Shown: positions 3,628-60,412 of the stretch, piece after piece | How the letters are laid out: every line of letters begins with the position of its first letter | Position numbering within the stretch: the stretch's first letter is position 1 | Source of the DNA: an uncultured Methanosarcinales archaeon | GTDB lineage: Archaea > Nanobdellota > Nanobdellia > Woesearchaeales > CAXGTL01 | Direction: 5' to 3' | NCBI GenBank assembly: GCA_964535955.1 | Contig: CAZHVK010000004.1 | Span: 6,222-70,221 of the forward strand | Length of the DNA stretch: 64,000 bases | The notes under the pieces: generated by a model | What the model was told of the DNA's origin: nothing | Database searches by the model: none | What the model saw: only the letters and a program-made list of their open reading frames with translations | Translations under genes and position numbers: made by a program

Positions 3628-3656
3628 TAACGCAGTAAAATCTGGGGGGATTGAAT

Positions 3657-4604
3657 ATGGTAGAATTTAGAAAATTAATTGCATTTGGAAAATCATCTTA
3701 TGTAATCAGTTTACCTAAAAAATGGATAGAGAGGAATAAGTTGGACAAGGGTGATACAATCTTTATCGAGGAGAAATCACACTCACTTACATTAAGAACA
3801 AAACAAGAAGAATCAGATGAATCAAAAAAAGAGATTACAATAAATGTAGACAATGTTCCTCTTGATTATATTAAAAGAAAGATTGTTAGTTCATACATAA
3901 ATAATTACAAGAGCATTAAGATTACAGGAAAGACACTAAAAGATAAATACAGTAAAATAAGGGATTATCTTCACGATCTAATGGCTTTAGAAATTCTTGA
4001 ACAAAGTGCTGATGTAATTGTTGCAAAGGATTTTATTAATATGAATCAAGTTTCTTTGTTAGGTTTTATCAGGAAGATAGACAATATTACAAGATTTATG
4101 ATGAATGATTCAAAAACATCTATTATAGACAATAAATATGAAAATATTTATGAAAGAGATAAAGATGTTAATAGAATTGGTTTCTTAATATATAGGACAA
4201 TTAAATTTGCTTTGATTAATCCTTCTATGTGCAAAAAACTAAATGTTGAACCAGTTGATTTATTATATTATTGGGTCATAACAAAGCAGATAGAATTTAT
4301 AGCTGATGAATGCAAAAGAATTGCAAGAGTTATGAGAGATATTCACATAAATAAACAGTTAAAAGATGAAATAATCAAGATTTATGAACAAATCCAGAAA
4401 TTTTATGCAGATATAATGAAGGCATATTATACAAAGAATGAAGAAGAAGCTTATAAGATTGCTGCTAAAAAGAATGGAATTTTAAAAATAGTTGATGATT
4501 TTAATAAAAAATATCAAAATAAGAAGAATATTCCTGTTTTATGCGATAAATTCAAGAATTTGATTGCTAATATACATATAGCAGGAAGAATGATTTACAC
4601 ATAA
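3657..4604 (+). CDS. Putative transcription regulator: N-terminal AbrB/SpoVT swapped-hairpin domain fused to a PhoU-like domain
   Basis: N-terminus GKSSYVISLPKKWIERNKLDKGDTIFIEE resembles the AbrB/SpoVT DNA-binding motif; the remainder is helical, PhoU-like. ATG at 3657 with a GGGGGG RBS (the track's TTG at 3651 is unlikely). Confidence 0.6.
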   Translation: MVEFRKLIAFGKSSYVISLPKKWIERNKLDKGDTIFIEEKSHSLTLRTKQEESDESKKEITINVDNVPLDYIKRKIVSSYINNYKSIKITGKTLKDKYSKIRDYLHDLMALEILEQSADVIVAKDFINMNQVSLLGFIRKIDNITRFMMNDSKTSIIDNKYENIYERDKDVNRIGFLIYRTIKFALINPSMCKKLNVEPVDLLYYWVITKQIEFIADECKRIARVMRDIHINKQLKDEIIKIYEQIQKFYADIMKAYYTKNEEEAYKIAAKKNGILKIVDDFNKKYQNKKNIPVLCDKFKNLIANIHIAGRMIYT

Positions 4605-12290: not shown

Positions 12291-13070
12291 TTACTTTGGT
12301 AAATACTTTCTCAGCTCATCACATTTCTTACTAGCCAGCTCAACCATTTCCATGATTTCCTCAGCACTCAAAGAATGATCTCCACCTTTCTGCATTGCAC
12401 ATATATCATTAGATTCATCAAAAGCAACTGTTAACCTTGCATCATAAACTTCTTCTTCATCAGGCAAAGGGTCAACAACAAAATTATCACCAATCTTCCA
12501 CACAGTGCATGATATTGGTTGATTATTAAGTTTTATTCCTTGTTTTGATTTTTCTTCATAATTAATCTTGTATACTCCATCTGTTTCTTCTAATCCAGGC
12601 AGCTCAGTGTCCATTAATGCAGCTAATGCACCTATTGCACTTGCATCAAACAAATTACCAGCAGCATTAATAGGAACAATATCAATTGCACAGACCCAGA
12701 CTTTTTCTCCAGATTTAATACACATGCTTTTAAAATCAAGACATTTACTTTCTCGAACACCACGATCAATTACACGAGCTAGTTCAATTGCTTCTATTCT
12801 TGGTGGTCCTGATTCAAAATCAGGTGAAGCAAGTGGAATTAATTCTGCACCAACCATTATAGTTCCTTGATCAGGAGAATCAGGATATGGTGACATTATT
12901 TCCATCTTAACACCAACAACAACAATAGTGTCACCTATTGTAACTCTTGCAGAACCTTCTGCACCTTCTGTCACACCTAGTTCTATTTTGATTGGTTTTC
13001 TATATTCATCATTCTTTCTTCCATCTAACCTAATATTTTGTTTTATTAGTTTGATTATGTGGTTTTTCAT
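12291..13070 (-). CDS. rrp42: Exosome complex RNase PH-like subunit Rrp42
   Basis: RNase PH fold, N-terminus IRLDGRKNDEYRKP; position after rrp41 in the conserved archaeal operon. ATG at 13070 with RBS GAGGTGG 5 nt upstream (the track's 13079 is a GTG). Confidence 0.8.
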   Translation of the reverse strand: MKNHIIKLIKQNIRLDGRKNDEYRKPIKIELGVTEGAEGSARVTIGDTIVVVGVKMEIMSPYPDSPDQGTIMVGAELIPLASPDFESGPPRIEAIELARVIDRGVRESKCLDFKSMCIKSGEKVWVCAIDIVPINAAGNLFDASAIGALAALMDTELPGLEETDGVYKINYEEKSKQGIKLNNQPISCTVWKIGDNFVVDPLPDEEEVYDARLTVAFDESNDICAMQKGGDHSLSAEEIMEMVELASKKCDELRKYLPK

Positions 13071-13098
13071 AAAAACCACCTCTGGTTGTTTTTATGAA
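13066..13098 (-). promoter_or_regulatory. Intercistronic hairpin sequestering the RBS and start codon of rrp42
   Basis: mRNA-sense TTCATAAAAACAACCA-GAGG-TGGTTTTTATGAA; the 13-bp arms ttcataaaaac(a)acca / tggtttttatgaa are reverse complements and contain the SD and the ATG. Confidence 0.4.
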
Positions 13099-13134
13099 GC
13101 TTAAAAATCTTTAATTTTTTTTGTTTTGTAATAC

Positions 13135-13860
13135 TCATTTTGCCACCTCATACGCTTGTTTCAATGCCTTTTTCTGTACTTCATAGATTTCCATGCAAAC
13201 TTTTTTAGCCATTTCTAATGACTTTTTAAGTTGTTCTTTTTTAATTCTTCCATCTAATTGTAACAAAGTTACTTTACCAAGATTAGGCATCATTGCAACT
13301 GGTATATCTGTCACATGTTCATTATCAAATTTGTCAACAAATTCTGTATAATGTTCTTCTTTATAATCAAGATCAGCAACAATTGTATTATCAACTTCTC
13401 CAACACCTACTGCTGTAACCAAATCTTTCATTTGAAATCCAGCATGTGCTAAAGCCATTGATGCTGCACATATTCCAGCACATCTTGACCCTGCATCAGA
13501 TTGATCAATTTCAATAAATATATCAACCACTGCATTAGGAAACTCACTTAAATCAAGTGCAGGCAATAATGCTTTTTGTGTTACTAGTCCAATTTCTTTA
13601 GAACGACGATTTCCACCTGGCCTTATTCTGCCACCATTTGTTCCTGAGAATGGTAACATATTATAATTACATCTTAGCATTCCTTTTTCAGGATCTTGTA
13701 AAAATCTAGGATAAAGTTCTCTAGGACCATACACAGCAGCAATTGCTCTTGTTTTTCCTTGTTGAAACATTGCAGAACCAATTGCATTCTTTACAACTCC
13801 AACTTTTGCTTTTATTGGTCTTATTTCATCTAATTTTCTTCCATCTAAACGTTGTTTCAT
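13135..13860 (-). CDS. rrp41: Exosome complex catalytic RNase PH subunit Rrp41
   Basis: Phosphate-binding RLDGRKLDEIRP motif, RNase PH fold. ATG at 13860 with RBS GAGGTGG (the track's 13869 is a GTG). Confidence 0.85.
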   Translation of the reverse strand: MKQRLDGRKLDEIRPIKAKVGVVKNAIGSAMFQQGKTRAIAAVYGPRELYPRFLQDPEKGMLRCNYNMLPFSGTNGGRIRPGGNRRSKEIGLVTQKALLPALDLSEFPNAVVDIFIEIDQSDAGSRCAGICAASMALAHAGFQMKDLVTAVGVGEVDNTIVADLDYKEEHYTEFVDKFDNEHVTDIPVAMMPNLGKVTLLQLDGRIKKEQLKKSLEMAKKVCMEIYEVQKKALKQAYEVAK

Positions 13861-13886
13861 AAAAACCACCTCATGGTTTTTATGAA
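13856..13886 (-). promoter_or_regulatory. Intercistronic hairpin sequestering the RBS and start codon of rrp41 (same motif as at rrp42)
   Basis: TTCATAAAAACCA-TGAGG-TGGTTTTTATGAA: perfect 13-bp inverted repeat around the SD and ATG. Confidence 0.4.
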
Positions 13887-13928
13887 TTTCAAAATTTCAT
13901 TTTGAATTTTCATTTTAAATTCCTCCAT

Positions 13929-14726
13929 TTATCTCCTTTTATTAAATTTATTAAAAGACCTTGTATCTCTTCTCTGAGGTGGTCTATGATCATCTCTTTC
14001 CTCAGGTCTTGGATTAGAAATAATCTCTACTTTTTTTCCAGTCTTTTCTTCTAAAAATACTTTGATTCTATCTGTTAAACCTGCAAAATGTGATTCAGCT
14101 TCAATCTTTTTGATTGTTTCACTTGCTAATAATTCCATCTTAGGATCTTCTGCATTTAACCAAACCAATCCATTTTGTCCAACAATTATCTTACATTCAG
14201 TTGCATTCTTGATCATTGAGATCATTGAAGCATTTTTACCGATTATTCTTGGAACTTTGCAAGGAGTTATACTTAAAATCCTTCCTTCTCCTAGTCTCCT
14301 AAGACCTCTGTCTTTCATTGTAATATCAATCAAGTTTTGTGAAGTTATATTCTTTATTTTTGTAAGCATATAATCTCCTATATTAAAAAACCTAGTTAAA
14401 TCAGCATTCCTTGGTATAAATTGTGAACCTGCTTCTGCAATTGATAACATTGCACTATAAGCAGAATTAGTTTCAACTCTCCATCCACTAAAAGTTATGT
14501 CAAAAACTTTTACAATTATTCTGTCACCAACTTTAGGAATATATTTTCCACCAAGTTTGATTATCTTGATTGCTCTGCCTTCAACTGAAACCAAACCAAG
14601 TCGTGAGGCAATTATATAATCACCTTCTCTATATGTTCTTTGTCCAGGCAAAAAATCAAGACCTTGAGCTAATTTTTCTCCAGGAACAACAATGTCTTTT
14701 TCTTTTACTAATAATTTACTTTCCAT
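13929..14726 (-). CDS. rrp4: Exosome RNA-binding cap subunit Rrp4 (N-terminal domain, S1 and KH domains)
   Basis: S1-like region (GDYIIASRLGLVSVEG...) and KH-like GKNASMISMIKNATECKIIVGQNGLVWL; operon position. Confidence 0.8.
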   Translation of the reverse strand: MESKLLVKEKDIVVPGEKLAQGLDFLPGQRTYREGDYIIASRLGLVSVEGRAIKIIKLGGKYIPKVGDRIIVKVFDITFSGWRVETNSAYSAMLSIAEAGSQFIPRNADLTRFFNIGDYMLTKIKNITSQNLIDITMKDRGLRRLGEGRILSITPCKVPRIIGKNASMISMIKNATECKIIVGQNGLVWLNAEDPKMELLASETIKKIEAESHFAGLTDRIKVFLEEKTGKKVEIISNPRPEERDDHRPPQRRDTRSFNKFNKRR

Positions 14727-14805
14727 TTTCTTTTTTCCTCCAAATTATTTTTTATTATTATTTTCATTTTTCTTATTTTATTTATTCTTGTTTCCTCTTG
14801 TCAAC

Positions 14806-15537
14806 TTACCTCGTTCTAACAATTTTACTCTCAACCTTGCCATGAGTCATATTATTTAATTTTTCAAAAAACTCTTCTGTTAAGCCTGCTGGAATTTCAA
14901 TAATAGATGTTAACGATCCATCATTATTCCAATTCTCTTTTAATATTTTTGCAAAACTCTTAACAATTGAATAGGATTTTGCAGCATATTCAGTAGGAAT
15001 ACGCACTTCTATTTCTCTTATCTCAAACTTAATAGCAAGAATAGGTCTTAACTTTTCTAAGATTTCTTTAATTTGATCTTCAGCTTTTCTATATTCTTGC
15101 ACATGAACTTTAGCTTCTTTAAATGCATTTTCTATCCTTTCAATAGGATGTGGTAATTTTGTTCTTGGATCAATCCCATTTCTATGGATAATGTTTATAA
15201 TTTTTCTTTTTTTATCCTCAACCAATTTAGCACGATACTCAGCTGTTAATTGGATTTCTCCTTGTTTGATAATTATTTTTGCAACTTCATAAGGATCACT
15301 TGTTTCAAACACTGTTTTCATCCTATTTTCAGAAGCCAGCATTCCTTTTTTAGCATCATTAAACACTTTAGGTGCTTTTAATATCTCTCTTATATTGATA
15401 CTTTCATCACCTTGTTTAAATTTAACAGCTAAATCTGGATCAATATCTATTTCAAAGTTTTCACCATCTTTTTTAATTCTTGCAACATTAATATGTATTT
15501 TTTTTGTCAAGTCCAATGTTCCGCCTGCTTGTCCCAT
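14806..15537 (-). CDS. sdo1: SBDS/Sdo1 family ribosome maturation protein
   Basis: About 240-aa protein between psmA and rrp4, as in the conserved archaeal superoperon. ATG at 15537 (MGQAGG) with RBS GGGTGA (the track start at 15546 is a GTG). Confidence 0.65.
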   Translation of the reverse strand: MGQAGGTLDLTKKIHINVARIKKDGENFEIDIDPDLAVKFKQGDESINIREILKAPKVFNDAKKGMLASENRMKTVFETSDPYEVAKIIIKQGEIQLTAEYRAKLVEDKKRKIINIIHRNGIDPRTKLPHPIERIENAFKEAKVHVQEYRKAEDQIKEILEKLRPILAIKFEIREIEVRIPTEYAAKSYSIVKSFAKILKENWNNDGSLTSIIEIPAGLTEEFFEKLNNMTHGKVESKIVRTR

Positions 15538-15564
15538 ATTTATCACCCATATATATTTTTATAT

Positions 15565-16299
15565 TTATTTCTTCTTTTTAGCAGCTTTTACATATTTTTC
15601 TAATTCATTGTTTGCTATTTTTTTAAACTTGTTATCTTTTATAGATATAAATGCGCAATCTAGTCTATCCACATGAAAGTTTTTACCCAATGCTTTGATT
15701 AAAGCTCTAATTGCAAGTTTTATACCTTCATCAATCGTTAGATTTTCATTATACTGTTTTTGAAGTATTTCTTCAACTTCTAATTCAGATTCACCAATTG
15801 CACTTGCTTTATACCTAAAATAAATCCCTGTTGGATCTGTTTCATATAATTTAGGTTTTCCTTCATCAATTCCTGCAACCAAAATTGATACTCCAAAAGG
15901 TCTAAGCCCGCCTGATTGTGTAAAGATCTGTTTAACATTACACATATCCTTAACAATTGATAATACATCTACAGGTGAATCATATGTAACTCTGTGTTGT
16001 TGTGCTTTTAACTGTGCTCTTTCAATCAACACTCTTGCATCTGACAAAATACCTGATGCAGTGGAACCTATATGGTCATCTATCTGCCATATCTTTTCAA
16101 CAGCATCCTTTACAATCAAAGGATCAACTATTCTTTTATCAGTTACTAGTACAACTCCATCTTTACATATCATACCAATTGCAGTAGAACCTTGTCTAAC
16201 TGTTTTTTTAGCATACTCTACTTGTAATAATCTTCCGTCAGGGCTGAACATTACAGCTGCCCTGTCATATCCCATCATCTGATGTTCCATTGGTTGCAT
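15565..16299 (-). CDS. psmA: Proteasome alpha subunit
   Basis: N-terminus GYDRAAVMFSPDGRLLQVEYA is the proteasome alpha signature. ATG at 16299 with RBS GAGGTGG (the track's GTG at 16311 lies inside the RBS). Confidence 0.85.
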   Translation of the reverse strand: MQPMEHQMMGYDRAAVMFSPDGRLLQVEYAKKTVRQGSTAIGMICKDGVVLVTDKRIVDPLIVKDAVEKIWQIDDHIGSTASGILSDARVLIERAQLKAQQHRVTYDSPVDVLSIVKDMCNVKQIFTQSGGLRPFGVSILVAGIDEGKPKLYETDPTGIYFRYKASAIGESELEVEEILQKQYNENLTIDEGIKLAIRALIKALGKNFHVDRLDCAFISIKDNKFKKIANNELEKYVKAAKKKK

Positions 16300-16416
16300 T
16301 TTAAATTCCACCTCATATTTAGTTTATTTGATTTTTGATAATTATTAATTTTAAGATGCAACTTTTTTACGAGCGTAGCGAGGAAATTTAGTTGCATTTT
16401 TATTTCACCTCATATA

Positions 16417-16886: not shown

Positions 16887-18179
16887 TCATATTTTAACCT
16901 TTCTAACTTCTTCACCTTTCAAATGAAAACAAGTAACACTATTAACCCTAACCCTAACAACATCACCTAATTCATAATCACCTTTTACAACTATAGGCCT
17001 ATATGCATAATTCCTTCCAACAAAAGTAGCCTCACCACCAATATCTTTACCAATATCATCAATTATGATATCTCCAACCCAATTATACCATTTCTCATTT
17101 ACCATTAAACCAATATTCTTAAACAAATCAAATAAATAGGAAGAACGTTTCTTGATATCAGCACCAGAAACCTTTTTCTTCATTCTAGCAGCTTTTGTAC
17201 CACTTCTTTGCCAATACTTAGAAATATTAATAATATCAGGATTCAACCAACGAACCAATCCAATTGTATCATTGAACTGAGACTCTGTTTCAGAAGGAAA
17301 CCCGCATATTATATCAGTTGCTATTGTTATTTCTGGAATTGCTTTTCTAAATGCACTCACAACAAACTTAAAATCATCAACAGCATACTTACGATTCATC
17401 TTAACTAAAACTTCATTATTACCAGATTGAATAGGAATATGCAAAAACTTAAACATCTTTTCGTTTTTGTATATGTCGATAAGAGGGTTTAAATGTTTCA
17501 AAACATGATTAGGGTTAATCATACCAAGCCTTATCTTAAAATCACCATGAATAGCAACTAATTGCCTTAACAATCTCGGTAAAGGAAAATCTATATCATA
17601 ACCATAAGCACCAGTATCTTGCGCAGTTATCCATATTTCTTTTACACCAGACTTAACAGCATGTGTTGCCTGCCTAACAATAGTATCAGGATCATATGAT
17701 ACTAAATGACCTCTAGCCTTTTTAACAATACAATAAGCACATGCACCTAAACAACCAGCACATATAGGAATGATTTCCACTACCTTATTCCTCCGAATCT
17801 TAGGTAAATTCAATCGAGGATTCTTATCATCAGCTATCAAATGCACAATATGATCATTAATAGTTTCTTCAACAACAGAAACAATATTACAAACTTGTTT
17901 AGGTGATATCATTGAATACTTTAAAAGCTGTTTAGGACTAGTCTTTGTAATACATCCTGCAACAATAACCATCTTACCAAGATTATTAACATTGTCTATG
18001 TACTTAAGTGCATTTGTTTCACTTGGGCCTTTAACTACGCATGTATTGACAATAACAACATCACAAGAATCTACAGAATCAACAATCACAAACTCTGCAT
18101 CAGCTAACAAACCAGCCATAACTTCTGAATCAGACCTATTAACACTACATCCAAATGTTTTTATGAATATTTTTGACAT
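16887..18179 (-). CDS. mtaB: tRNA methylthiotransferase (MiaB/MtaB family, radical SAM; e-MtaB type)
   Basis: N-terminal MTTase domain (FGCSVN...NTCVV), radical SAM CAGCLGACAYC (CxxxCxxC), C-terminal TRAM-like domain. Confidence 0.8.
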   Translation of the reverse strand: MSKIFIKTFGCSVNRSDSEVMAGLLADAEFVIVDSVDSCDVVIVNTCVVKGPSETNALKYIDNVNNLGKMVIVAGCITKTSPKQLLKYSMISPKQVCNIVSVVEETINDHIVHLIADDKNPRLNLPKIRRNKVVEIIPICAGCLGACAYCIVKKARGHLVSYDPDTIVRQATHAVKSGVKEIWITAQDTGAYGYDIDFPLPRLLRQLVAIHGDFKIRLGMINPNHVLKHLNPLIDIYKNEKMFKFLHIPIQSGNNEVLVKMNRKYAVDDFKFVVSAFRKAIPEITIATDIICGFPSETESQFNDTIGLVRWLNPDIINISKYWQRSGTKAARMKKKVSGADIKKRSSYLFDLFKNIGLMVNEKWYNWVGDIIIDDIGKDIGGEATFVGRNYAYRPIVVKGDYELGDVVRVRVNSVTCFHLKGEEVRKVKI

Positions 18180-18924: not shown

Positions 18925-19087
18925 ATGTGCATGGTGTCCTTCATAAATCGGAGATTTATGATCGTGCTCAGAAATGCTCTGCATTTCTGACATGTAAGAC
19001 CAGTGAGCACATCTCAGATTGTACAACGATCAGGGCTTTCCAAACAAGATAACTAATACATGGAAAGTGCGAACGAACCATGCACAT
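18925..19087 (+). ncRNA. Structured repeat element copy 2 (163 nt), 48 nt upstream of argS on the same strand
   Basis: Same closing helix atgtgcatgg/ccatgcacat and hairpins as copy 1. Loops differ, and one stem carries a compensatory swap (tcataaatc/gatttatga vs tcataaatgc/gcatttatga). Confidence 0.5.
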
Positions 19088-19135
19088 ACCTTTTTTAATA
19101 ACTTTTATAAACACCCAACACTTAACTATCTAAAT

Positions 19136-20839
19136 ATGGACTTTAAACAAAACATTATTGATGAAATAAAGAAAATAACAAAAGCAGAAACAGTAAAAGT
19201 AGAGATCCCTCCAGACAGAAAATTAGGTGACTATGCAATACCTTGTTTCCAATTCTCAAAATCATTAAAAAAAGATCCAAAAAGAATATCACAATATCTA
19301 AAATCAGAATTAAAAAACAAAATAAAAGGAATAAAAGAAATAAAAGTAATTGGTCCATACTTAAACTTCTTTGTTGACAAAACAATTTTAACAGAAAATA
19401 TATTAAAAGAGATTAATAAGGAAAAAGAAAAGTTTGGGATACAAAAAAAAACAAAACCAATAGTATATCTAATGGATGTTTTTCAGCCAAATACCCATAA
19501 AGCATTTCATATAGGACATATTAGAAATGCTGTTTTAGGAGAATCAGTAAGAAAATTATTAATTGCATCTGGTGATAAAGCAATTGCAGTCTCATACATG
19601 GGCGATGTTGGTGCTCATGTTGCAAAATGGATTTGGTACTTTAACAAATTCTATAAAGGAGACATTCCCAAAGAGAATATCAGTAAATGGGCTGGTTCTA
19701 TCTACACAAAAGCTACTCAAGAATCTCAAGATTCTGAAATTTATCAACAAGAAATACATGATGTTCATATAAGACTAGAAAATGGTGAAGAAAAATTAGT
19801 TAAACTATGGGAAAAAACAAGAAAATTGTGTTTAGACGATCTTTGGAAAATTCAAAAACAATTAGGTGTACATTTAGATGGACATATTTTTGAAAGTGAA
19901 GTTGAAAAACCTGGTAAGGAAATAGTAAATGATTTAATTAAAAAAGGAATTGCAGAAGAAAGTGAAGGCGCAATTGGAATTGATCTTAAAAAACAAAAAC
20001 TTGGTTTTTTCTTATTATTAAAAAGCAATGGTGCTAGTTTATATTCTACAAAAGATTTTGGATTAGCAGAATTAAAAAATAAAAAATACAAATTTGATAA
20101 GTCTTTGTATGTAGTTGCAACAGAACAAAACTTTTATTTTCAACAGTTATTTGCAGCACTAAAATTAATAAAACATCCAACTTCTGACAAAAATGTCCAT
20201 CTTAGTTATGGTTTAGTCATGCTTAAAGAAGGCAAAATGTCATCAAGAGCAGGAAACATAGTTCTTTATGAAGATCTAAGAGATCAGATGTTAGATAAAG
20301 CAATGCAGGAAGTAAACAAAAGACACAAAGATTGGGATAAAAAAAGAAGACAAGAATCAGCAAACAAAGTAGCATATTCTGCAATGAAGTTTGTCATGCT
20401 TAAGTATGATAGTATTAAAATCATTTCTTTTGACATAAATGAAGCAATGGATTTTGAAGGAGAAACAGGCCCATACATACAATATTCTCATGCAAGAATC
20501 TGCTCAATACTAAGAAAAGCAATTGGTAAGGAATTGAAACCAAACATAAAGATAGACTTTACTTTACTTAAAGAAGAATCTGAACACAAACTAATAACAA
20601 TATTATCAAACTTCCAAAACATTATCATAGACTCAGCAAACCATTACAAACCATCTATATTATGCAGATATCTGTTAGATCTAGCACAAGCATTTAATGA
20701 GTTTTATCATCAATGTGTTGTAGTAGACAAAGATAATATAGAACTTAGCAAATCAAGATTATTATTAGTTGACAGTGTAAGACAAGTTATTAAGAATGGA
20801 CTACTCCTTCTAGGTATTGAAGCTCCTATTGAAATGTAA
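19136..20839 (+). CDS. argS: Arginyl-tRNA synthetase
   Basis: Class I HIGH-type motif (PNTHKAFHIGHIRNA), KMSK-like MSSRAGN, C-terminal DALR anticodon-binding domain. Start is the ATG at 19136 (MDFKQNIIDEIKK); the track's extension to 19019 overlaps the repeat element. Confidence 0.9.
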   Translation: MDFKQNIIDEIKKITKAETVKVEIPPDRKLGDYAIPCFQFSKSLKKDPKRISQYLKSELKNKIKGIKEIKVIGPYLNFFVDKTILTENILKEINKEKEKFGIQKKTKPIVYLMDVFQPNTHKAFHIGHIRNAVLGESVRKLLIASGDKAIAVSYMGDVGAHVAKWIWYFNKFYKGDIPKENISKWAGSIYTKATQESQDSEIYQQEIHDVHIRLENGEEKLVKLWEKTRKLCLDDLWKIQKQLGVHLDGHIFESEVEKPGKEIVNDLIKKGIAEESEGAIGIDLKKQKLGFFLLLKSNGASLYSTKDFGLAELKNKKYKFDKSLYVVATEQNFYFQQLFAALKLIKHPTSDKNVHLSYGLVMLKEGKMSSRAGNIVLYEDLRDQMLDKAMQEVNKRHKDWDKKRRQESANKVAYSAMKFVMLKYDSIKIISFDINEAMDFEGETGPYIQYSHARICSILRKAIGKELKPNIKIDFTLLKEESEHKLITILSNFQNIIIDSANHYKPSILCRYLLDLAQAFNEFYHQCVVVDKDNIELSKSRLLLVDSVRQVIKNGLLLLGIEAPIEM

Positions 20840-21178
20840 TCAAGCAATCTTCTTATCTACATCACAATTATTTTCCCTAATCATGCTAACCAAGCCTTTA
20901 TAATTATTATTCTTATTTTTATTATATTTATAATCATTCTCAAATTTCACTTTAAAACATTCTTCACAATAATCCTCAGGCACTCCTGAATATAAAGGTG
21001 TACCAGCACCACTATAAGTTACATCAATACCTTCAAAAAACTCTTTATCTTTTAATATTTTATCTAGATCTAAAGGATATATTCTGACTAAAAATTTTAC
21101 ATCATTTATTGTAAGTTTTCCATATACTAATTCCAATGCAATTCCAGTTTCACAAATATGGTCTATAGATTCTGTCAT
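20840..21178 (-). CDS. Hypothetical protein (112 aa), convergent with argS with zero spacing
   Basis: Intact ORF; no motif recognised. Confidence 0.45.
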   Translation of the reverse strand: MTESIDHICETGIALELVYGKLTINDVKFLVRIYPLDLDKILKDKEFFEGIDVTYSGAGTPLYSGVPEDYCEECFKVKFENDYKYNKNKNNNYKGLVSMIRENNCDVDKKIA

Positions 21179-21290
21179 ACTTATTATAGTCTATTTTATG
21201 CTATTTAAATTAGATGTATTTAGAACATATACTCATATGGAAATAAAACATGTATTAGTAGAAAATATTACAAAAAAAGAATAAAAATAC

Positions 21291-23081
21291 CTACCTTGTA
21301 GGTCTATAACTTCTAGGTGATCTTGCTTTTGGTGCTTTATCAGCTTTAATCAATCTTTCTAAACCATTAAAAGCAGCATTTATTTCAGCAACATCTCCAC
21401 CATTTTGTTTATACTTTGACAAAGTATTAACTAATTTATCAATTATTTTGTTTTTGTCTTCTCTATCTTGCTTGTACAAATCCATCAATGTCTTTATTTG
21501 TTGTTCATATGCTCTTTGCATATCTAATTGTGATTGTGGATTATATTTACAACCAGGTTGAACAGCTCCTTGTTCAGGTGCTTGTGGTTCTTCAGGTTGT
21601 GCTTCTGGTTTTGCTTCAGGCTTTGCTTCTGGTGTCATTTCTGGTGTCACTTTTTGTCCATCTACATATACATTATTTACAATTGTTAATTGACTATCTT
21701 CAGCATTACCTTCGCCTGCTCCAACATCTTGGCCACTTCTTTCATAATCACTGATATCTTCAATTGTTTCTTTTACTTCTTGCCTTGAGTCTTCTATCTT
21801 GATTATTTCTTCTTCATGATAACCTAATGCCTCATCAACTTCTTCAAAATATACATCTACAACTTTTTCCACTGTTTTACCTTTTCCTGCTACAGAATCA
21901 TGGTCTTTACCAGTTTCTTTATAACAGCTAGTTGCACAAGATGATAAACCTATTAATGAACCTAGTGCTAATATTAATGCACTTATTTTAATACCTTTAC
22001 AAAATCTAGGATAACGATTTCTGATGTATTTAATTATTCCACCATCATCTCCATTACCACCATTACCATCTTTAATTGGTATTGGCATTTTCTTTTTATC
22101 AGTATATTTCTGTGAATCTTTAGCTTTTTCAACATCTACTGGCATTTTATTAGGCATTGGTGTTTTAACTTTACCTTTTACATCTTCTTTACTATGAGTA
22201 TCACTACCATCCCCACGAATTAATCCATATTCTTTTGCTTTTTGTTTCCAAAAAGAATCACCTGAAGCACCTACTACTTTTTCTATGTATGTTTTTTCTT
22301 TATTATCTTTATCTCTTTTCTTTATTGTTTCTTTAATCTCATCTACTTGTTCTTTGACATCTGGAAATACTTCTGTATCTTTATCTTTTTCTTCTGTCTT
22401 TCCATCTGTTTTTGCTTTTTTAGTACCTTTCATATCAATATTAGCAATTTTCTCTGATAATTCTTCACGTTGAGCTTTTCTTGTGCCAGTGTCTTTTTTA
22501 TCTTTTATATCTTTTTCTTTTTGTTGTTTCTTTCTTTCTTTTCTTTCTTTATCTCTTTGTTTTTGTTTTTCTTCTCTTTGTTTTCTTTCTTTTTCTCTTT
22601 TCTTCTTATTTTCTTCCCTTTTCTTCTTTTCTTGCTCTCTTTTCTTTTTATCTTCTTCAGCTTTCTTCTTATCTTGATCTTGTTTTGCTTTTTCAGCTTC
22701 TTTAGTTTTTGTCTTTTCAGTTTCTTTAGTATCTTTACCTTTTGCTTTTACTTGTTTTTCTGTTTCTAACTTTGCTTTATAGAAATCAACAAAATCACCT
22801 GGTTCTTGTTTTGCTCCTAACAAACCTGTTACATATTTATGATATTCATCATCTAATGATTCTCTAAGATCAAAATATTCTTCAAATGAACATTTTTTAA
22901 TTTCAGAACGATATTTGTTCCATTCTTGAACTCTATCTTCATATTTTTCATCAACTGCATTGTGGTCAATTGGATTTTGGTCAGCAATTTCTTCAAGTTT
23001 TTTTTGATTTTTAACATCTTCAAGTTTTTCTATTAATTCTTCTCCTTGTGATTTAGATTTTGTTTGATTGTTTTCAGTCAT
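21291..23081 (-). CDS. Membrane-anchored KE-rich/PEAK-repeat protein, paralog of the collagen-like protein
   Basis: Lys/Glu low-complexity block (KKREQEKKKREENKKKREKERKQREEKQKQRDKERKERKK), a TM helix (ALILALGSLIGL), then SCATSCYKETGKDH...DSRQEVKETIEDISDYER shared with 23222..24412, and PEAKPEAKPEAQPE repeats. Confidence 0.6.
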   Translation of the reverse strand: MTENNQTKSKSQGEELIEKLEDVKNQKKLEEIADQNPIDHNAVDEKYEDRVQEWNKYRSEIKKCSFEEYFDLRESLDDEYHKYVTGLLGAKQEPGDFVDFYKAKLETEKQVKAKGKDTKETEKTKTKEAEKAKQDQDKKKAEEDKKKREQEKKKREENKKKREKERKQREEKQKQRDKERKERKKQQKEKDIKDKKDTGTRKAQREELSEKIANIDMKGTKKAKTDGKTEEKDKDTEVFPDVKEQVDEIKETIKKRDKDNKEKTYIEKVVGASGDSFWKQKAKEYGLIRGDGSDTHSKEDVKGKVKTPMPNKMPVDVEKAKDSQKYTDKKKMPIPIKDGNGGNGDDGGIIKYIRNRYPRFCKGIKISALILALGSLIGLSSCATSCYKETGKDHDSVAGKGKTVEKVVDVYFEEVDEALGYHEEEIIKIEDSRQEVKETIEDISDYERSGQDVGAGEGNAEDSQLTIVNNVYVDGQKVTPEMTPEAKPEAKPEAQPEEPQAPEQGAVQPGCKYNPQSQLDMQRAYEQQIKTLMDLYKQDREDKNKIIDKLVNTLSKYKQNGGDVAEINAAFNGLERLIKADKAPKARSPRSYRPTR

Positions 23082-23221
23082 AAGACAACCCTCCTATAGT
23101 GGTTTTTTATATATAATAATATATAAAGAGAAATAACTTATTGTTTATAAATGTTTCGGAAAATTAACCATTATTAAGTGATAACACAACCTTAAATTAT
23201 GAATTTACCTAGTACAAGCCT

Positions 23222-24412
23222 TTATTCAGTATAATGGTCTGTTTTTACTTTTTTACCATCTATATATATATTATTGATTACTTTGAGTCTATTTTGTTTA
23301 TTGCCTTTTTTACCTGGTTTTCCATTACCTTTGACTGGTTTGTCATCATCATCTCTTTCATAATCAGCAATATCTTCAATTGTTTTCCTTACTCCTTGTC
23401 TTGAATCACCAATCTTATCTATTTGGTCATTGTGAAAATCTAATGCACCATCTACTGATCTAAAGTATTTCTTAACTTTTCTTTCAACTTTTTTACCTTC
23501 TCTTGCTACATAAGCATGATCTTTGCTAGTTTCTTTATAACAACTGGTTGCATAACATGAAAGTCCTACTAATAATGCTAATGCTAGTAATCCTGTTCCT
23601 ATTTTTGCTGTTTTATACAAACAAGGATATTGATTTTTGATGTATGCAAAGAGTCCTTTGTTATCTTTATCTTTTTTATCATCATCATTAGGTCTATATG
23701 GTCCAATTGGTCCTGGTAGTCCTTGTTCTCCTTGAATTCCTTGTGGCCCTTGTATTCCTTTTTCTCCAGGCTCTCCGTCCTTACCATCTACTCCAGACTT
23801 ACCATCTACTCCTGGCTTTCCATCTACCCCATGCTTTCCATCTACTCCTTGTTTTCCATCTACCCCTGGCTTTCCATCTTCTCCATCTTTTCCATCTACT
23901 CCATGCTTTCCATCTATTCCAGGTTCCCCTTTTTCTCCAGGTACCCCAGGATTTCCATCTACTCCTGGCTTTCCATCTATTCCAGGCTCTCCATCTTTTC
24001 CATCTGCCCCAGACTTTCCATCTATTCCAGGCTCTCCGTCCTTTCCATCTACTCCAGGTTTTCCATCTTTTCCTTTTTTACCTCTTGGTCCTGTTTTTCC
24101 AGGCTCCCCTTGTTCTCCTTGTGCTCCTGGATCTCCTTTAATACCAATTCTATTAATACCATCTTTATACAAACAAACAACAATTGATCCTAATGAATCA
24201 CGAAGTAATTTTCTATCTTGTAATTTTTTTTCTTTAATAACTTCATTAGCAAAATATTCAGGAACATGTGCTCTTTGAAAGATATCTACTTCATCTTGAG
24301 TAAATAAACCACTATACTTTGGTTGTTTTGTTTGTTTTTTAGAATCATCAATCCATTTATCTACTTTATCATCTAATGCTATTTTAAAATATTCTATTGT
24401 ATCTTCAGTCAT
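23222..24412 (-). CDS. Collagen-like triple-helix repeat membrane protein
   Basis: 50 uninterrupted Gly-X-Y triplets (GIKGDPGAQGEQGEPGKTGPRGKKGKDGKPGVDG...GLPGPIGPY), then a TM helix (LLALALLVGL) and a C-terminal SCYATSCYKETSKDH...DSRQGVRKTIEDIADYER module. Confidence 0.65.
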   Translation of the reverse strand: MTEDTIEYFKIALDDKVDKWIDDSKKQTKQPKYSGLFTQDEVDIFQRAHVPEYFANEVIKEKKLQDRKLLRDSLGSIVVCLYKDGINRIGIKGDPGAQGEQGEPGKTGPRGKKGKDGKPGVDGKDGEPGIDGKSGADGKDGEPGIDGKPGVDGNPGVPGEKGEPGIDGKHGVDGKDGEDGKPGVDGKQGVDGKHGVDGKPGVDGKSGVDGKDGEPGEKGIQGPQGIQGEQGLPGPIGPYRPNDDDKKDKDNKGLFAYIKNQYPCLYKTAKIGTGLLALALLVGLSCYATSCYKETSKDHAYVAREGKKVERKVKKYFRSVDGALDFHNDQIDKIGDSRQGVRKTIEDIADYERDDDDKPVKGNGKPGKKGNKQNRLKVINNIYIDGKKVKTDHYTE

Positions 24413-24512
24413 ATTTCATCCCCCTATCATAATTTAATAATAATATTTGAAATAGAAATATATAATTATATATAAATGTTTAGGTAAATTTACTACAAAA
24501 AAATAGTAAAAA

Positions 24513-24758
24513 CTAGTGTAAATAACGTCTCAAACCAACACCATCACAGAACAATACATCTATGCCATCAGCATGCAAAACACCATCTTTGATCTCATAT
24601 GTATCATCAACAGCATCTTGTGCATATTTTGAAACATTGTCTTTCATATAATCTAGAAATTCTCCATAATTATTTCCAATAGTATCTTCTATATGTTTTG
24701 GTTTAATATTAATTAAGTCAATTGAATACATAAAATCCCCCCTTTTTTCAGTTATCAA
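24513..24758 (-). CDS. Small hypothetical protein (about 70-81 aa)
   Basis: Intact ORF; start ambiguous (M1 or M10). Confidence 0.35.
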   Translation of the reverse strand: MITEKRGDFMYSIDLINIKPKHIEDTIGNNYGEFLDYMKDNVSKYAQDAVDDTYEIKDGVLHADGIDVLFCDGVGLRRYLH

Positions 24759-24968
24759 ATATAACTTAAATATATTTGTATATTTCAGTAAACACCCTAT
24801 TTAAAGGTGTGCTGTCACTAATTGGTAGAAAAAGACAAAAGATTTATATATTATTTAAACTTTCTTTATAACTAGTTGGTGACATATTTCAAAATTCATA
24901 AAAATTGGTGATTTCTAGATAAATAAAATAGAAAAATATATAAACTAGTATATCAATTAGTATACTAG

Positions 24969-26519
24969 ATGTGGTTTAAATTCACTATGCCAAAGAATAG
25001 AAAAGGAAAAGTACAAGATATTTACAGTATTAGTCAGTCTAGACTAGATGATATTCTAACAGAACTTAGTAAAGATGAAACAACAGACAATACAAAGACA
25101 AAGATCTGCAAAGATCATTTAGGAGATTTGATTGATTGGAAACATAAAGAAGCAGGAATTTGTCCGATTTATAATGAAGTAAAATTTTCTAAAGATTGTG
25201 ACCAAGAAGCTGTTAGAACATTTTATGCAAAATTAGGCTTAAAACCAGCAAACACATTTTTAGAAGAATTAAGATATGAAATAAATGATTATTCAATTGG
25301 CCATCTTTTGGTTGTTTCTCCTGAAAATTATTTATTATTACATGAAAGTTTGGAGCAGATGGGAAGTGACATAAGCAAGTACACAAATCTTAAAGTAAAA
25401 GGTTCTGGAATCTTTTTTGAATCTCTTGACCCTGGTAAAGAAATCCAAGTAGGAGCTGTAAAATGGAATGTAGGACAATTAGTTAAACATTTTTTAAATA
25501 AATATGCTTCATATTTCATAAACAACCTAAGCCCTGCAAAATTTGAAGACAAATTAGAGTTTGTTTCAGACTTAAATGCAATATTAGATTATCTAATCAC
25601 TACATTAGGTTATAATGATAAGATATTTGTTGATGCAGGTGAACTAGTAAATGTAAAAGACAATTTACTTGAGTCATACCAAAACATGGAAGAAAAACAT
25701 AAACAAGATTTTAAACTGATTGAACTAGGTATATCAAAATATTGTAATGGAGGTCCTATCATACCTAAAAAATATATGATCAAAATAAATGATCCTTGCA
25801 TATTACTTGACAAAATAAGAAAAGAGATGATTTATCTTAGATCAAAAGTATCAGAATCACTTGCATCTAAGAAAAGCGTAAAACCAAAGTCATTAGATGA
25901 AGCTTTGCATGAAAAACTAAGACAAGAAGAAGAAAAAAGTGCAATAAGATTTAATAAAAAACAATCACAAAAGCACAAAACAGCATACAATAATAATATT
26001 TTAACTCAACAACCAGCATATCATACACAAGGAATTGCAAATACAGTTGCAATGGAATTTTTCAGATTACCAAAAGATCAAAGAGAACCCATATTAGATT
26101 TAATAAACAAGCAACTTAAACATGTTTTCAAAGAAAATTATGAAAATCTTGAATTTTATCCTGATCATTATTCAAATATAACAAACTTTACATTAAAATA
26201 CCTTGGAGCATTAGTTGTAACTGCTAATTTTTATAAGAAAAAAAATAATGTAGTAGGAGAAATTAATTATAGAAAATTATTAGAACATGAAATCAATAAA
26301 AATCCTAATATCTTTTTTGGAGATTTTACAAAAACACCAAAAGACCCAAAAGATCTATTAAGATTAGCTTTAACAGGATTAAAACAACATGATAGGTCAG
26401 TTAATTTATCACAAGTACAGGAATCATATAAAACATTAAGCACACCAGCTGCAACAGGTGATGTTGATTCAATGTTAGCAGATTATTACAAAGAAAAACA
26501 ACTTAGTAAACATAGATAA
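24969..26519 (+). CDS. Hypothetical protein (516 aa)
   Basis: Intact ORF preceded by direct repeats and an inverted repeat in its promoter region; no motif recognised. Confidence 0.5.
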   Translation: MWFKFTMPKNRKGKVQDIYSISQSRLDDILTELSKDETTDNTKTKICKDHLGDLIDWKHKEAGICPIYNEVKFSKDCDQEAVRTFYAKLGLKPANTFLEELRYEINDYSIGHLLVVSPENYLLLHESLEQMGSDISKYTNLKVKGSGIFFESLDPGKEIQVGAVKWNVGQLVKHFLNKYASYFINNLSPAKFEDKLEFVSDLNAILDYLITTLGYNDKIFVDAGELVNVKDNLLESYQNMEEKHKQDFKLIELGISKYCNGGPIIPKKYMIKINDPCILLDKIRKEMIYLRSKVSESLASKKSVKPKSLDEALHEKLRQEEEKSAIRFNKKQSQKHKTAYNNNILTQQPAYHTQGIANTVAMEFFRLPKDQREPILDLINKQLKHVFKENYENLEFYPDHYSNITNFTLKYLGALVVTANFYKKKNNVVGEINYRKLLEHEINKNPNIFFGDFTKTPKDPKDLLRLALTGLKQHDRSVNLSQVQESYKTLSTPAATGDVDSMLADYYKEKQLSKHR

Positions 26520-26609
26520 TACTCAAATCAATTAAATACCAATAAAAATAATCAAATAACAATCAAAAAAACTATATTTTTATAAACAAAACAACTTCTA
26601 CCTACAATA

Positions 26610-27671
26610 ATGGCAAAAATTATAGCAATTGACGAAAAAATAATAAATAATCAATTTAATAGACAAATTGCTGAATGTATTGGATTATGGTTAGCAGAAG
26701 GAGATAATAAATGTACGAATGAAATTACATTCACTAATAATTGTTTTGATCTTATTAAACATTTTCATAATACAATAACTAAATTATTTAAAGAATATAA
26801 TTTCAATATAAGAATTTATGTTTATTCAAAAAATAAACTTAAAATAGACCTTCCTATAAAAGATTGCATAACTAAATATTATTCTGATAAACGGGCTAAA
26901 AAACCTTATTTTATTTGGAGAATTTGTTCTGTTAAACTGAACAGGAAATGGAAAAATATTGTTGAAGCATATAAGCCAAATTCAGAATTTTATCCTGAAA
27001 TCTTAAGAGGGTTTTTTGCTGGTGAGGGGAATATCAAGATAGGAAGCCACAATAGTAGAGTAATTAGGATAGCACAAAAAAACAGAGTAAAGTTCATAGA
27101 AAATATATTAGATTCCTTAAAAATAGAATACAAGTTTAAAAAAAATGAGAGAAGTTATTGCATATATCATAAGGATAATTGGGATATTTTTTCTAGATTT
27201 GGATTAGCAGATTTACATCCTATAAAAAAGAACAAATTCTATACTAATTATAATTTCAAAGAAGAACATTATAAACATAATTATCTTAAAAAAGAAGTAT
27301 TTAAAGAATTGGTTAGACCTCATACTACAATTGAATTATCTAAAAAATTTAATCGTTCACCAGCAAGAATCTGTGATATTGTAATAGAGCTTAAAAAAGA
27401 AGGTCTTATCACAAATTTTGGAGTCAAAAGTACTATGTATTGGATAAGAAATGATAAAAATTCTATAATTATATCACAAATTAAAGAGAAATATATAAAT
27501 ATAGTAAAAGAAAAACCATTATTAACATCTGAAATTGCTAAAACATTAAAAGTTGATTGGAAAAATGCATTCAAAAGATTGAAAGAACTTGAGAAATTAA
27601 AATTAGTACAACAAATTAACAAAAATGAATGGGGATATATTAAAACAAGTAAAAGGGTTATCGTAATATGA
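26610..27671 (+). CDS. Free-standing double-motif LAGLIDADG homing-endonuclease-like protein with two C-terminal winged-helix domains
   Basis: Two LAGLIDADG motifs: ECIGLWLAEGD and LRGFFAGEGNIK. C-terminal wHTH-like segments (TIELSKKFNRSPARICDIVIELKKEGLI; TSEIAKTLKVDWKNAFKRLKELEKLKLV). Stop overlaps the rnhB start (ATATGA). Confidence 0.65.
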   Translation: MAKIIAIDEKIINNQFNRQIAECIGLWLAEGDNKCTNEITFTNNCFDLIKHFHNTITKLFKEYNFNIRIYVYSKNKLKIDLPIKDCITKYYSDKRAKKPYFIWRICSVKLNRKWKNIVEAYKPNSEFYPEILRGFFAGEGNIKIGSHNSRVIRIAQKNRVKFIENILDSLKIEYKFKKNERSYCIYHKDNWDIFSRFGLADLHPIKKNKFYTNYNFKEEHYKHNYLKKEVFKELVRPHTTIELSKKFNRSPARICDIVIELKKEGLITNFGVKSTMYWIRNDKNSIIISQIKEKYINIVKEKPLLTSEIAKTLKVDWKNAFKRLKELEKLKLVQQINKNEWGYIKTSKRVIVI

Positions 27672-28324
27672 GCAAGGTCATAGCCATAGATGAGGCTGGT
27701 AAGGGTCCAGTAATAGGTCCACTTGTAATGACAGGTGTGCTTGTTGACGAAAAAGATTTAGACAAACTAAAAGTAATTGGTGTAAAAGATTCTAAACTAA
27801 TTCTTAAACATAAAAGAAAAGCAATGCTTGAACAAATTAAAGAAATAATCATAGATTATAAAACAATAATTGTGACAGCTGAAGAACTAAACCAAAGCAT
27901 GAAAAAGATTAATCTAAATCAGATAGAAGCAATAAAAGCAGCAGAAATCATTAATCATTTTAATAAAATCGATGTAGATACTGCAATCATCGACTGCCCG
28001 TCACCAAACATTGGTGCATACAAATATTATATACAAAAACATTTAGAAAGAGAAATAGACTTAAGACCAGAACACAAAGCAGATCTTAATTATGTATCTG
28101 TAGGAGCAGCTTCAATTATTGCAAAAACAACTAGAGATGATGAAATAGAAAAGCTAAAAAAAGAAGTAGGAACAGACTTTGGCTCTGGTTACACATCAGA
28201 CCCAAAAACACAAGCTTTTCTCAAAGATAATTTTGATAAACATCCAAACTTATTCAGAAAGCGCTGGTCAACATGGAAAAACCTAGACATGGCAAAGAAA
28301 CAAAGTAAGTTAGGAGATTTCTAA
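27668..28324 (+). CDS. rnhB: Ribonuclease HII
   Basis: VIAIDEAGKGPVIGPLV N-terminal catalytic motif, DSK, DCPSP motifs typical of RNase HII. Confidence 0.85.
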   Translation: MSKVIAIDEAGKGPVIGPLVMTGVLVDEKDLDKLKVIGVKDSKLILKHKRKAMLEQIKEIIIDYKTIIVTAEELNQSMKKINLNQIEAIKAAEIINHFNKIDVDTAIIDCPSPNIGAYKYYIQKHLEREIDLRPEHKADLNYVSVGAASIIAKTTRDDEIEKLKKEVGTDFGSGYTSDPKTQAFLKDNFDKHPNLFRKRWSTWKNLDMAKKQSKLGDF

Positions 28325-50527: not shown

Positions 50528-53782
<3,255 letters not shown>

Positions 53783-56707: not shown

Positions 56708-57621
56708 CTCTTTATAATACCAATCAAACTACCACTGCAGTGATAAAACATTCTTATAACATTTATCAAATAATGAATTACTTGTTTTTCATTATCTTTT
56801 TTAGAATCCAGACATTTCATGCCTAACTTGAATGCAAATTTATTCTCAATACTGTGTATGTCCTGCACAATGTTTGTGTCTTTTGTAACATATAATTTAT
56901 GCAATTTGTCTAATTCTTCTTTTGCAGCACTTAAAAACTTTTTAATATCTTTGTTCATATTTATTTTCCTGTCATGAACATGATTATTAAGAAACCCAAG
57001 ATTTCTTCCTGCAAGTGTGATATGTGACAAAAACAACCAATAAATAGGTGCTAGTTTGGTAGAAAATAAACCTTTTGAAATACACCTTCTCAGGAAATTA
57101 GCATATTTATGAACACTCCTAACAAGTTCTTCTACTTCTCTGAATTCTTGTTTATTTCTTTTTATGATGTTTTTTTCTAAGATTCTCATTATCTCTTTTA
57201 AAATAAAAAACTCTTTATTGATTATGTTATTAAAATTATCAATGCTTGGTTCTGTTATTGATTCTATAACATATTCCTTATCAGAACGGGATCTTACATC
57301 AAAACCAATGATTGCTGTTTCAACAATCTTTTTCACTGTCTTTATTACATTTTTATTTTCAAACCTGATCGTGATCTTGTCATATCCTTGTCTATAAAGG
57401 TTTGCAATAAACCTGCTGATCAAGCTTTTCTCAGCAATTGGTATGTCTATCACTATTTCTTGTTTTTGTTTCTTTTTTTTTGAATCTATTATTAATTTAT
57501 TATGTTCTTCATCAACCTCTACTTCATCTCCTGCTTTTAAACCAATCTTATCAATCCACTTCTTTGGAACATAGATTGTTAAGCCTCCTCCTCCGCCTTG
57601 TCTTATTAATTTTCTTTTCAT
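56704..57621 (-). CDS. AbrB/SpoVT-PhoU-like regulator (paralog of 3657..4604)
   Basis: N-terminus GLTIYVPKKWIDKIGLKAGDEVEVDEE parallels SYVISLPKKWIERNKLDKGDTIFIEE; helical C-terminal domain. Confidence 0.6.
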   Translation of the reverse strand: MKRKLIRQGGGGGLTIYVPKKWIDKIGLKAGDEVEVDEEHNKLIIDSKKKKQKQEIVIDIPIAEKSLISRFIANLYRQGYDKITIRFENKNVIKTVKKIVETAIIGFDVRSRSDKEYVIESITEPSIDNFNNIINKEFFILKEIMRILEKNIIKRNKQEFREVEELVRSVHKYANFLRRCISKGLFSTKLAPIYWLFLSHITLAGRNLGFLNNHVHDRKINMNKDIKKFLSAAKEELDKLHKLYVTKDTNIVQDIHSIENKFAFKLGMKCLDSKKDNEKQVIHYLINVIRMFYHCSGSLIGIIKS

Positions 57622-60401: not shown

Positions 60402-60412
60402 GTGAATAAAAA

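Follow-up and report, generated by a model that had tools for sequence, protein, structure and literature searches.

A Collagen-Like, Predicted Single-Pass Membrane Protein and Its Tandem Paralog in a Woesearchaeota-Type Archaeon

Most of the characterized prokaryotic collagen-like proteins are surface or virion fibers, such as Scl1/2, Lcl, BclA, and phage tail fibers. Collagen triple helices need an adjacent oligomerization domain to align their three chains, and collagen-like proteins can fold in the prokaryotic cytoplasm, as exemplified by phage tail fibers and Bacillus BclA. Among animal proteins, collagens XIII, XVII, XXIII, and XXV, along with SR-A and MARCO, have a signal-less transmembrane (TM) anchor along with a collagen helix and, next to the membrane, a coiled coil. 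Here, we describe a collagen-like gene and its tandem paralog in a 64-kb stretch of archaeal DNA (the window; positions 6,222 to 70,221 of contig CAZHVK010000004.1, with the coordinates below counted from its first letter), in which an earlier note, made from the sequence alone, had drawn attention to the repeat. That note called collagen-like repeats rare in archaea, and a 2015 count of 14 archaeal collagen entries in Pfam against 2,554 bacterial ones agrees (PMC4565658). Salt-bridge triplets (KGE and KGD) are overrepresented in collagens of all domains, archaea included (PMC11923368). A literature search returned no publication tying collagen-like proteins to DPANN lineages. The repeat itself is not new: bacterial and viral examples are well known, and archaeal ones, although rare, have been catalogued.

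We propose that the gene product is a lineage-specific membrane protein that crosses the bilayer once and belongs to a Woesearchaeota-type DPANN archaeon of oxygen-deficient marine waters; in this protein, a trimeric collagen rod would face the cytoplasm and serve as a spacer or tether. We place the probability of this reading at roughly 0.45. What appears unusual, judging from the sequence, is the combination of a missing signal peptide, a collagen block that precedes the sole TM helix, and a predicted coiled coil beyond the membrane. The tandem paralog, which seems to exchange the collagen for a charged helical segment, is unusual too.

Several described systems share parts of this architecture. 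As in other members of the PF01391 family, the GXY run is long and uninterrupted, the score exceeds the gathering threshold, and many residues are charged; the differences lie in the archaeal host, the placement of Pro mainly at Y, the preference for DGK over KGD/KGE, and the homolog-free flanks. As is the case for bacterial collagen-like proteins, no obvious prolyl hydroxylase is encoded nearby. Scl1/Scl2 and Lcl, which are the best NCBIfam matches, also join a non-collagen N-terminal head to a collagen rod and a cell-anchoring C-terminal region. The matches cover the repeat only, with scores of 87.6 against a cutoff of 400 for Scl1/SclA (NF038330), 82 against 325 for Scl2/SclB (NF038329), and 56.4 against 500 for Lcl (NF046116). 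Moreover, unlike Scl1/Scl2, the archaeal protein has neither a signal peptide nor an LPXTG motif, and its anchor is a TM helix with about 105 further residues.

Phage collagen-like tail fibers (several PHROG families, such as phrog_5073, phrog_6320, and phrog_1806) have a similar GXY composition, likewise lack a signal peptide, and are synthesized in the cytoplasm; however, the matches to them are limited to the repeat, the locus has no viral context, and a TM anchor is present here. The C-terminal C1q/TNF-like trimerization domain of Bacillus BclA is absent. The nearest functional analogy is provided by the animal type II transmembrane collagens and receptors, which are also single-pass proteins that lack a signal peptide and unite a TM helix with collagen and with a coiled coil beside the membrane (a putative one in the archaeal protein). 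In the animal proteins, both the coiled coil and the collagen lie C-terminal to the TM helix and are extracellular, whereas here the collagen is N-terminal to it and predicted to be cytoplasmic, with the putative coiled coil C-terminal and across the membrane; there is also no sequence homology.

The collagen gene, its repeat, and its flanking domains

The gene is an intact open reading frame (ORF) with an ATG start and a product of 396 amino acids, as evidenced by the ORF list and its translation. A Shine-Dalgarno-like GGGGGATGA precedes the start codon, ending 5 nucleotides (nt) ahead of it, and an A/T-rich, TATA-like stretch is found farther upstream. Because the G+C content of the window is only 29.7%, an ORF of 396 codons is far beyond chance length, and an N-terminal extension is impossible, as each ORF was taken to begin at the first start codon that follows a stop.

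A regular-expression count identified the longest G-X-Y run as exactly 50 triplets, and no other run of at least four in-frame triplets occurs in the six frames of the window. The earlier note had the number of triplets right but placed the block at residues 91 to 240 (23693 to 24142), which is off by one residue, or 3 nt (Table 1). Since Gly makes up only 5.8% of the residues in long ORFs, a chance origin of 50 in-phase Gly residues (about 0.058^50) is excluded. A Pfam search, which the note had suggested as a check, supports a genuine collagen-like coding sequence: Collagen (PF01391) is matched in three stretches spanning residues 90 to 239, with a score of 88.8 bits (cutoff, 27.2) and an E value of 1.9e-25.

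The X position of the block is most often K (16 triplets), E (10), V (9), or I (6), and the Y position is most often D (18), P (13), or Q (7). Overall, 17% of the X and Y residues are Pro (13 at Y versus 4 at X) and 50% are charged. KGE and KGD occur once each, while the reverse arrangement, DGK, accounts for 13 of the 49 Y-G-X triplets. At the DNA level, the block consists of nested 9-, 18-, 27-, 54-, and 63-nt units with 68 to 84% matches, and it is because of this divergence that we regard it as an old, drifted expansion rather than a recent perfect repeat.

The same locus was found in short-read assemblies (JGI, ENA, and Logan) from at least five samples, all of which break within the repeat. 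Their nonrepeat parts are identical to the window, and differences are confined to the center of the repeat; one anomalous contig (L013) diverges from the window over its final ten residues, where it breaks off. In JGI sample 3300009374, an N-terminal fragment of 170 amino acids and a C-terminal fragment of 228 abut at "GKL" and give a joined length of 396 amino acids, with four substitutions (H170L, E178V, Q188D, and H194P) that all fall on X or Y residues and none on Gly. All repeat variants from other samples are in frame and retain every Gly. Moreover, an identical 396-residue protein (P0008) is recorded for a 148,635-bp contig in NCBI. A frame-shifted gene, which the earlier note had listed among the findings that would speak against it, was not seen, as the ORF is intact and its variants keep the frame.

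On the plus strand, two ORFs that overlie the block were considered as genes and rejected, since the sense frame has both the Pfam match and conservation with the paralog. Their L/F/H/S-rich, low-complexity translations fit the note's description of them as by-products of the repeat.

Outside the repeat, the N-terminal head was modeled by AlphaFold2 (AF2) from a single sequence as an all-helical domain, albeit weakly, with a predicted local distance difference test score (pLDDT) of 57. The TM helix that the earlier note saw after the block corresponds to the sole segment of the protein with a 19-residue Kyte-Doolittle mean of at least 1.6 (best value, 1.83, at residues 271 to 289). In the AF2 model of the anchor module, this helix is merged into one long helix, with an overall pLDDT of 59.

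In the post-TM helix (residues 294 to 352), hydropathy power is 108 at a period of 3.5, compared with no more than 8 at periods of 2, 3, 4, and 5; the same segment of the paralog gives 61 versus no more than 22. The pLDDT across this helix is 75 to 84, and numerous residues are invariant between both paralogs. It is probably a coiled coil of about eight heptads and a putative trimerizer. In the tail, AF2 gives low pLDDT followed by two short strands, and a beta-hairpin-like motif, L.V.NN.Y.DG.KV, is conserved with the paralog.

TABLE 1 Features of the collagen-like gene and its neighbor in window coordinates
Feature	Position	Strand	Evidence or remarks
Complete gene for a collagen-like, predicted bitopic membrane protein, 396 aa	23222..24412	-	Stop codon 23222-23224; ORF list, translation, Shine-Dalgarno-like GGGGGATGA
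N-terminal domain, residues 1-89; polar, four predicted helices, no signal peptide	24146..24412	-	Hydropathy, AF2
Collagen-like block, 50 uninterrupted Gly-X-Y triplets, residues 90-239	23696..24145	-	Regular-expression count, Pfam PF01391
Charged juxtamembrane linker RPNDDDKKDKDNKGLFAYIKNQYPCLYKTAK, residues 240-270	23603..23695	-	Translation; matches paralog from residue 254 on
Single predicted TM helix IGTGLLALALLVGLSCYATSCY, residues ~271-293	23534..23602	-	Hydropathy; kept in paralog
Post-TM amphipathic heptad helix, putative coiled-coil (trimerization) segment, residues 294-352	23357..23533	-	Periodicity, AF2
C-terminal tail, residues 353-396; acidic/Gly-Lys-rich disordered stretch, then hairpin-like motif and stop codon	23222..23356	-	Paralog alignment, AF2
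Adjacent paralog, 596 aa; next gene downstream, same strand	21291..23081	-	BLASTP versus collagen protein
Two antisense low-complexity ORFs, 23698-24141 and 23723-24187	23698..24187	+	L/F/H/S-rich repeat translations

Tandem paralog and membrane topology

The adjacent paralog is 51% identical to the collagen protein over 137 amino acids (BLASTP, E = 6e-36). The module common to both consists of the juxtamembrane segment, the TM helix, the heptad helix, and the hairpin, with the shared TM and coiled-coil portion located at residues 347 to 485 of the paralog (window 21627 to 22043). The conserved C-terminal domain of about 100 residues that the earlier note described is therefore conserved only with this neighbor; the searches described below gave no other homolog. 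Where the collagen protein has its head and collagen block, the paralog has 345 N-terminal residues that include 81 Lys, 49 Glu, and 35 Asp (48% K/E/D) and contain an uninterrupted KKKREQEKKKREENKKKREKERKQREEKQKQRDKERKERKK run, a type of sequence that folds into single charged helices or coiled coils. The shared module is followed by a Pro/Glu-rich linker (PEAKPEAKPEAQPEEP, PEAKPEAKPEAQPEEPQAPE) and then by a helical C-terminal extension; the PEAKPEAKPEAQPEEP linker resembles envelope-spanning spacers such as that of TonB. Because the paralog swaps the collagen for a charged segment, the conserved unit seems to be the membrane anchor plus the coiled coil, with an interchangeable N-terminal "rod."

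No match to the paralog was found in Pfam, NCBIfam, or PHROG, and the exact protein is present in 12 contigs from several samples. A comparison of the modules of the two paralogs gave a ratio of nonsynonymous to synonymous substitution rates (dN/dS) of 0.56 with a dS of 0.69, and 21 of 69 identical residues are encoded by different codons, in keeping with the maintenance of both as protein-coding genes.

Searches for homologs of the TM and C-terminal module returned none among 5.8 billion clusters (word-indexed search), 1.84 billion representatives (full HMMER search), GTDB species genomes, IMG/VR, and JGI metagenome contigs. This negative result is somewhat weakened by the fact that the cluster representatives of the two paralogs themselves are N-terminal fragments lacking the module, which also gives the missing self-hits a technical explanation. 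For the N-terminal head, the sole database match was a fragment of the same protein, with no Pfam match at E ≤ 10. The C-terminal 144 residues, predicted to form a long helix and a disordered tail, also had no Pfam match at E ≤ 10. When the flanks were compared with Pfam (E ≤ 10) and PDB sequences, only insignificant long-helix matches were returned (ATP synthase b, apolipoprotein, DUF948, and FlaC). The collagen protein is thus an orphan, and its gene is a strain-level accessory gene.

Which side of the membrane carries the collagen was addressed with three kinds of evidence. First, the proteins encoded at 58043 to 58927, 59610 to 60401, and 60684 to 62780 begin with textbook signal peptides, indicating that the organism uses ordinary Sec signals. 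Maximal 12-residue hydropathy within their first 40 residues is 1.8 to 2.0, whereas the collagen protein reaches 0.17 and the paralog -0.75 by the same measure; by N-terminal hydropathy, neither has a signal peptide. Second, charges were counted over 15 residues on each side of the TM helix. The collagen protein has three K/R and no acidic residues before the helix and three K/R and two acidic residues after it, while the paralog has six K/R and no acidic residues before and two K/R and three acidic residues after. Taken with the positive-inside rule, these flanking charges point to an N-in, C-out topology, and do so strongly for the paralog. Third, 270 very polar residues precede the TM helix in the collagen protein and 365 in the paralog, and we know of no route by which such long, highly charged segments could be exported N-terminus first without a signal. 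For the N-terminal region of the paralog, with its high K/E/D content, signal-less export is very unlikely.

Because of the lack of a signal peptide, the N-in charges, and the polar residues ahead of the TM helix, the collagen block is predicted to be cytoplasmic. The protein is most likely of the signal-anchor (type II) kind, with the head and the collagen in the cytoplasm and the coiled-coil/hairpin part, of about 105 residues, outside.

A cytoplasm-facing rod and competing readings

A triple helix needs an adjacent oligomerization domain, and the only candidate trimerizer in the protein is the heptad helix plus the TM helix, an element that begins about 30 residues past the last triplet. 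We propose that the post-TM heptad helix and the TM helix would join three chains in register, whereupon the GXY block would zip from its membrane-proximal, C-terminal end toward the N terminus. The resulting triple-helical rod would be about 43 nm long (150 residues at about 0.29 nm each) and would carry three copies of the head domain, held off the membrane. Rod and head would lie on the cytoplasmic face, and only the coiled-coil/hairpin part would be external. The paralog may build a comparable anchored rod from its charged helix. The two proteins would then act as rigid spacers or tethers that have interchangeable rod modules and a common small ectodomain and that link the membrane to a partner.

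Several observations weigh against this proposal. The topology rests on simple rules (hydropathy, the positive-inside rule, and an absent signal peptide), and the charge bias at the TM helix of the collagen protein itself is weak. Also, the block is poor in KGE and KGD, rich instead in DGK, and only modest in Pro, which leaves the stability of a triple helix in question. Both AF2 models are of low confidence (pLDDT 57 to 59), and no orthologs lend comparative support to a function. Finally, we know of no membrane-tethered collagen rod that faces the cytoplasm.

A more far-reaching form of the proposal is that this intracellular triple helix, a trimeric rod whose folding would be seeded from the far side of the bilayer by an external coiled coil, represents together with its charged-rod paralog an unprecedented class of membrane-anchored spacer, which might hold the nucleoid or a cell-cell contact apparatus in place in an ultrasmall symbiont; we consider this doubtful. 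If the predicted topology is true, a collagen rod on the cytoplasmic face of the membrane would broaden the view of how triple helices are used and would provide an entry point into the cell envelope and the contact biology of DPANN archaea, both poorly understood. Should the prediction fail, the protein would still be a candidate surface fiber of an uncultured episymbiont. General impact is limited for now because the subject is an orphan, strain-level accessory gene known from sequence.

The opposite orientation (N-out, C-in) would make the block extracellular, and the protein would then be a trimeric surface fiber or stalk with a C-terminal TM anchor, an 89-residue head acting as a host adhesin, and a cytoplasmic coiled coil. 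The earlier note had named such a membrane-anchored stalk as a candidate for host attachment, and precedent among characterized prokaryotic collagen-like proteins is on its side. The best NCBIfam and PHROG matches are proteins of this sort, though limited to the repeat. The DPANN-type host belongs to a group whose members are often episymbionts, the gene lies in a variable island (described below) of the kind typical for surface and interaction genes, and the weak charge bias at the TM helix would accommodate it. However, the block is N-terminal to the sole TM helix, so that translocation would have to begin at the N terminus and carry about 270 residues (365 in the paralog) through the membrane. 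The protein also lacks the signal peptide or hydrophobic N terminus that other exported proteins of the window possess, the charges around the TM helix of the paralog indicate N-in, and the collagen protein has no N-glycosylation sequons. The note itself had named a cytoplasmic repeat as a finding that would count against a stalk, and the cytoplasm is where the repeat is predicted to lie. We therefore consider an extracellular fiber unlikely.

A second alternative accepts the anchor and dispenses with the triple helix. The GXY block would be a flexible, highly charged linker of low complexity, derived from an 18-nt unit that expanded, with the TM and coiled-coil module as the functional unit. 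The scarcity of KGE/KGD, the dominance of Asp at Y, and the low Pro content are compatible with this idea, as are the nested repeats in the DNA and the differences in block sequence between samples. The paralog has a different charged low-complexity segment in the same place, so the sequence of the region seems interchangeable. Yet the block runs through all of its triplets without an interruption or a Gly substitution, and its repeat units have diverged, meaning that the phase was kept through many substitutions. The population variants never hit Gly. This points to selection for Gly at every third residue, a pattern for which a linker that only had to be flexible would have no use. A putative trimerization helix within about 55 residues of the block also sits poorly with a simple linker, and we judge this alternative improbable.

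Least tenable is the idea of a remnant or domesticated viral or mobile-element gene, such as a tail-fiber or virion fiber gene, lodged between the genes for arginyl-tRNA synthetase (ArgRS) and RNase HII: PHROG tail-fiber families do match (E down to 1.9e-22), and the interval is a variable island that is missing from the nearest relative and includes a LAGLIDADG-domain protein, but none of the PHROG or phage tblastn matches extends beyond the GXY block (residues ~80 to 266), PHROG has no match for the flanking domains, the paralog, or the four neighboring island genes tested, a scan of IMG/VR returned no relative of the anchor module, the G+C content of the island (0.28 to 0.31) equals the genome background of 0.30, and no integrase, capsid, or terminase gene is nearby, all of which makes a viral origin very improbable.

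Host, habitat, and genomic context

The host is an archaeon, as the earlier note had recognized. The window encodes an archaeal exosome/proteasome cluster comprising Rrp4, two RNase PH subunits (Rrp41 and Rrp42), SBDS, proteasome alpha, and Rpp14, along with prefoldin, a glutamyl-tRNA synthetase (GluRS) with archaeal/eukaryotic-type anticodon-binding domains, and TrmB-type regulators. The exosome/proteasome "superoperon" (Rrp42, Rrp41, Rrp4, SBDS, and proteasome alpha), with Rpp14 and a MiaB-like radical-SAM/TRAM enzyme after it, lies on the minus strand at 12291 to 16311 and 16887 to 18179 and serves as a taxonomic anchor.

The placement of the host among DPANN-like archaea, also suggested in the note, is well supported by its nearest relatives. 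The best named relatives of ArgRS are labeled "Candidatus Woesearchaeota archaeon" and "Nanoarchaeota archaeon," at 47 to 54% identity. Methionyl-tRNA synthetase (MetRS) is 75% identical to that of CAZYAB010000002.1 (L014), which is labeled "uncultured Methanosarcinales archaeon" and is the closest GTDB genome by this marker; the next matches are two Woesearchaeota, at 51% and 48% identity. Because all other close relatives are Woesearchaeota or Nanoarchaeota, we suspect that the Methanosarcinales label of CAZYAB01 is a taxonomic misassignment of a DPANN metagenome-assembled genome. As for habitat, one sample with the locus, SAMN10231904, comes from a marine oxygen-deficient water column (PMC12220078).

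The collagen gene lies in a 6.8-kb interval (20840 to 27671) between ArgRS (19019 to 20839) and RNase HII (27668 to 28324), which holds six genes: a 112-residue ORF, the paralog, the collagen gene, an 81-residue ORF, a 516-residue orphan, and a LAGLIDADG/TrmB fusion. The earlier note had advised a comparison with related genomes, and the closest relative with usable gene context is a contig (L050) from Logan SRR22388041 whose ArgRS and RNase HII are 70% and 72% identical to those of the window. In that contig, the interval carries two unrelated genes, encoding 327 and 257 amino acids, instead of the collagen/paralog pair, which places the pair in a variable island within a core region whose synteny is otherwise kept. 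No conserved neighborhood was found in a Woesearchaeota contig at 54% identity.

The last gene of the island (26610 to 27671, plus strand) encodes 353 amino acids with a LAGLIDADG_3 homing-endonuclease-like domain and TrmB/MarR-type winged-helix domains, and it overlaps the start of RNase HII by 4 nt.

The window also encodes proteins that are better candidates for surface or secreted roles than the collagen protein, as predicted from their classical signal peptides. Three of the four same-strand genes at 58043 to 62780 (plus strand) have such peptides, in products of 294, 263, and 698 amino acids; no significant family match was found for these genes, and a weak, subthreshold match to Apolipoprotein (698-residue protein) was the only one.

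Further loci are of separate interest. An 826-residue protein (45596 to 48076, minus strand) has a FliM-like N terminus and two FliN/SpoA-type C-terminal domains, with Pfam matches to FliMN_C (E = 9.8e-26) and FliM (E = 1.6e-5) and NCBIfam matches to fliN, fliM, and SctQ that fall under their cutoffs; such switch domains of the C ring of bacterial flagella and type III secretion systems are unexpected in a Woesearchaeota-like archaeon. At 50528 to 53779 (minus strand), DNA gyrase B is split by an intein (Intein_splicing, residues 459 to 880, with a weak HNH_3 match) in a precursor of 1083 amino acids. Finally, the genes at 3651 to 4604 (plus strand) and 56704 to 57621 (minus strand) encode proteins of 317 and 305 amino acids with an N-terminal MazE/AbrB-type (SpoVT-AbrB) DNA-binding domain, which in one of them is fused to PhoU.

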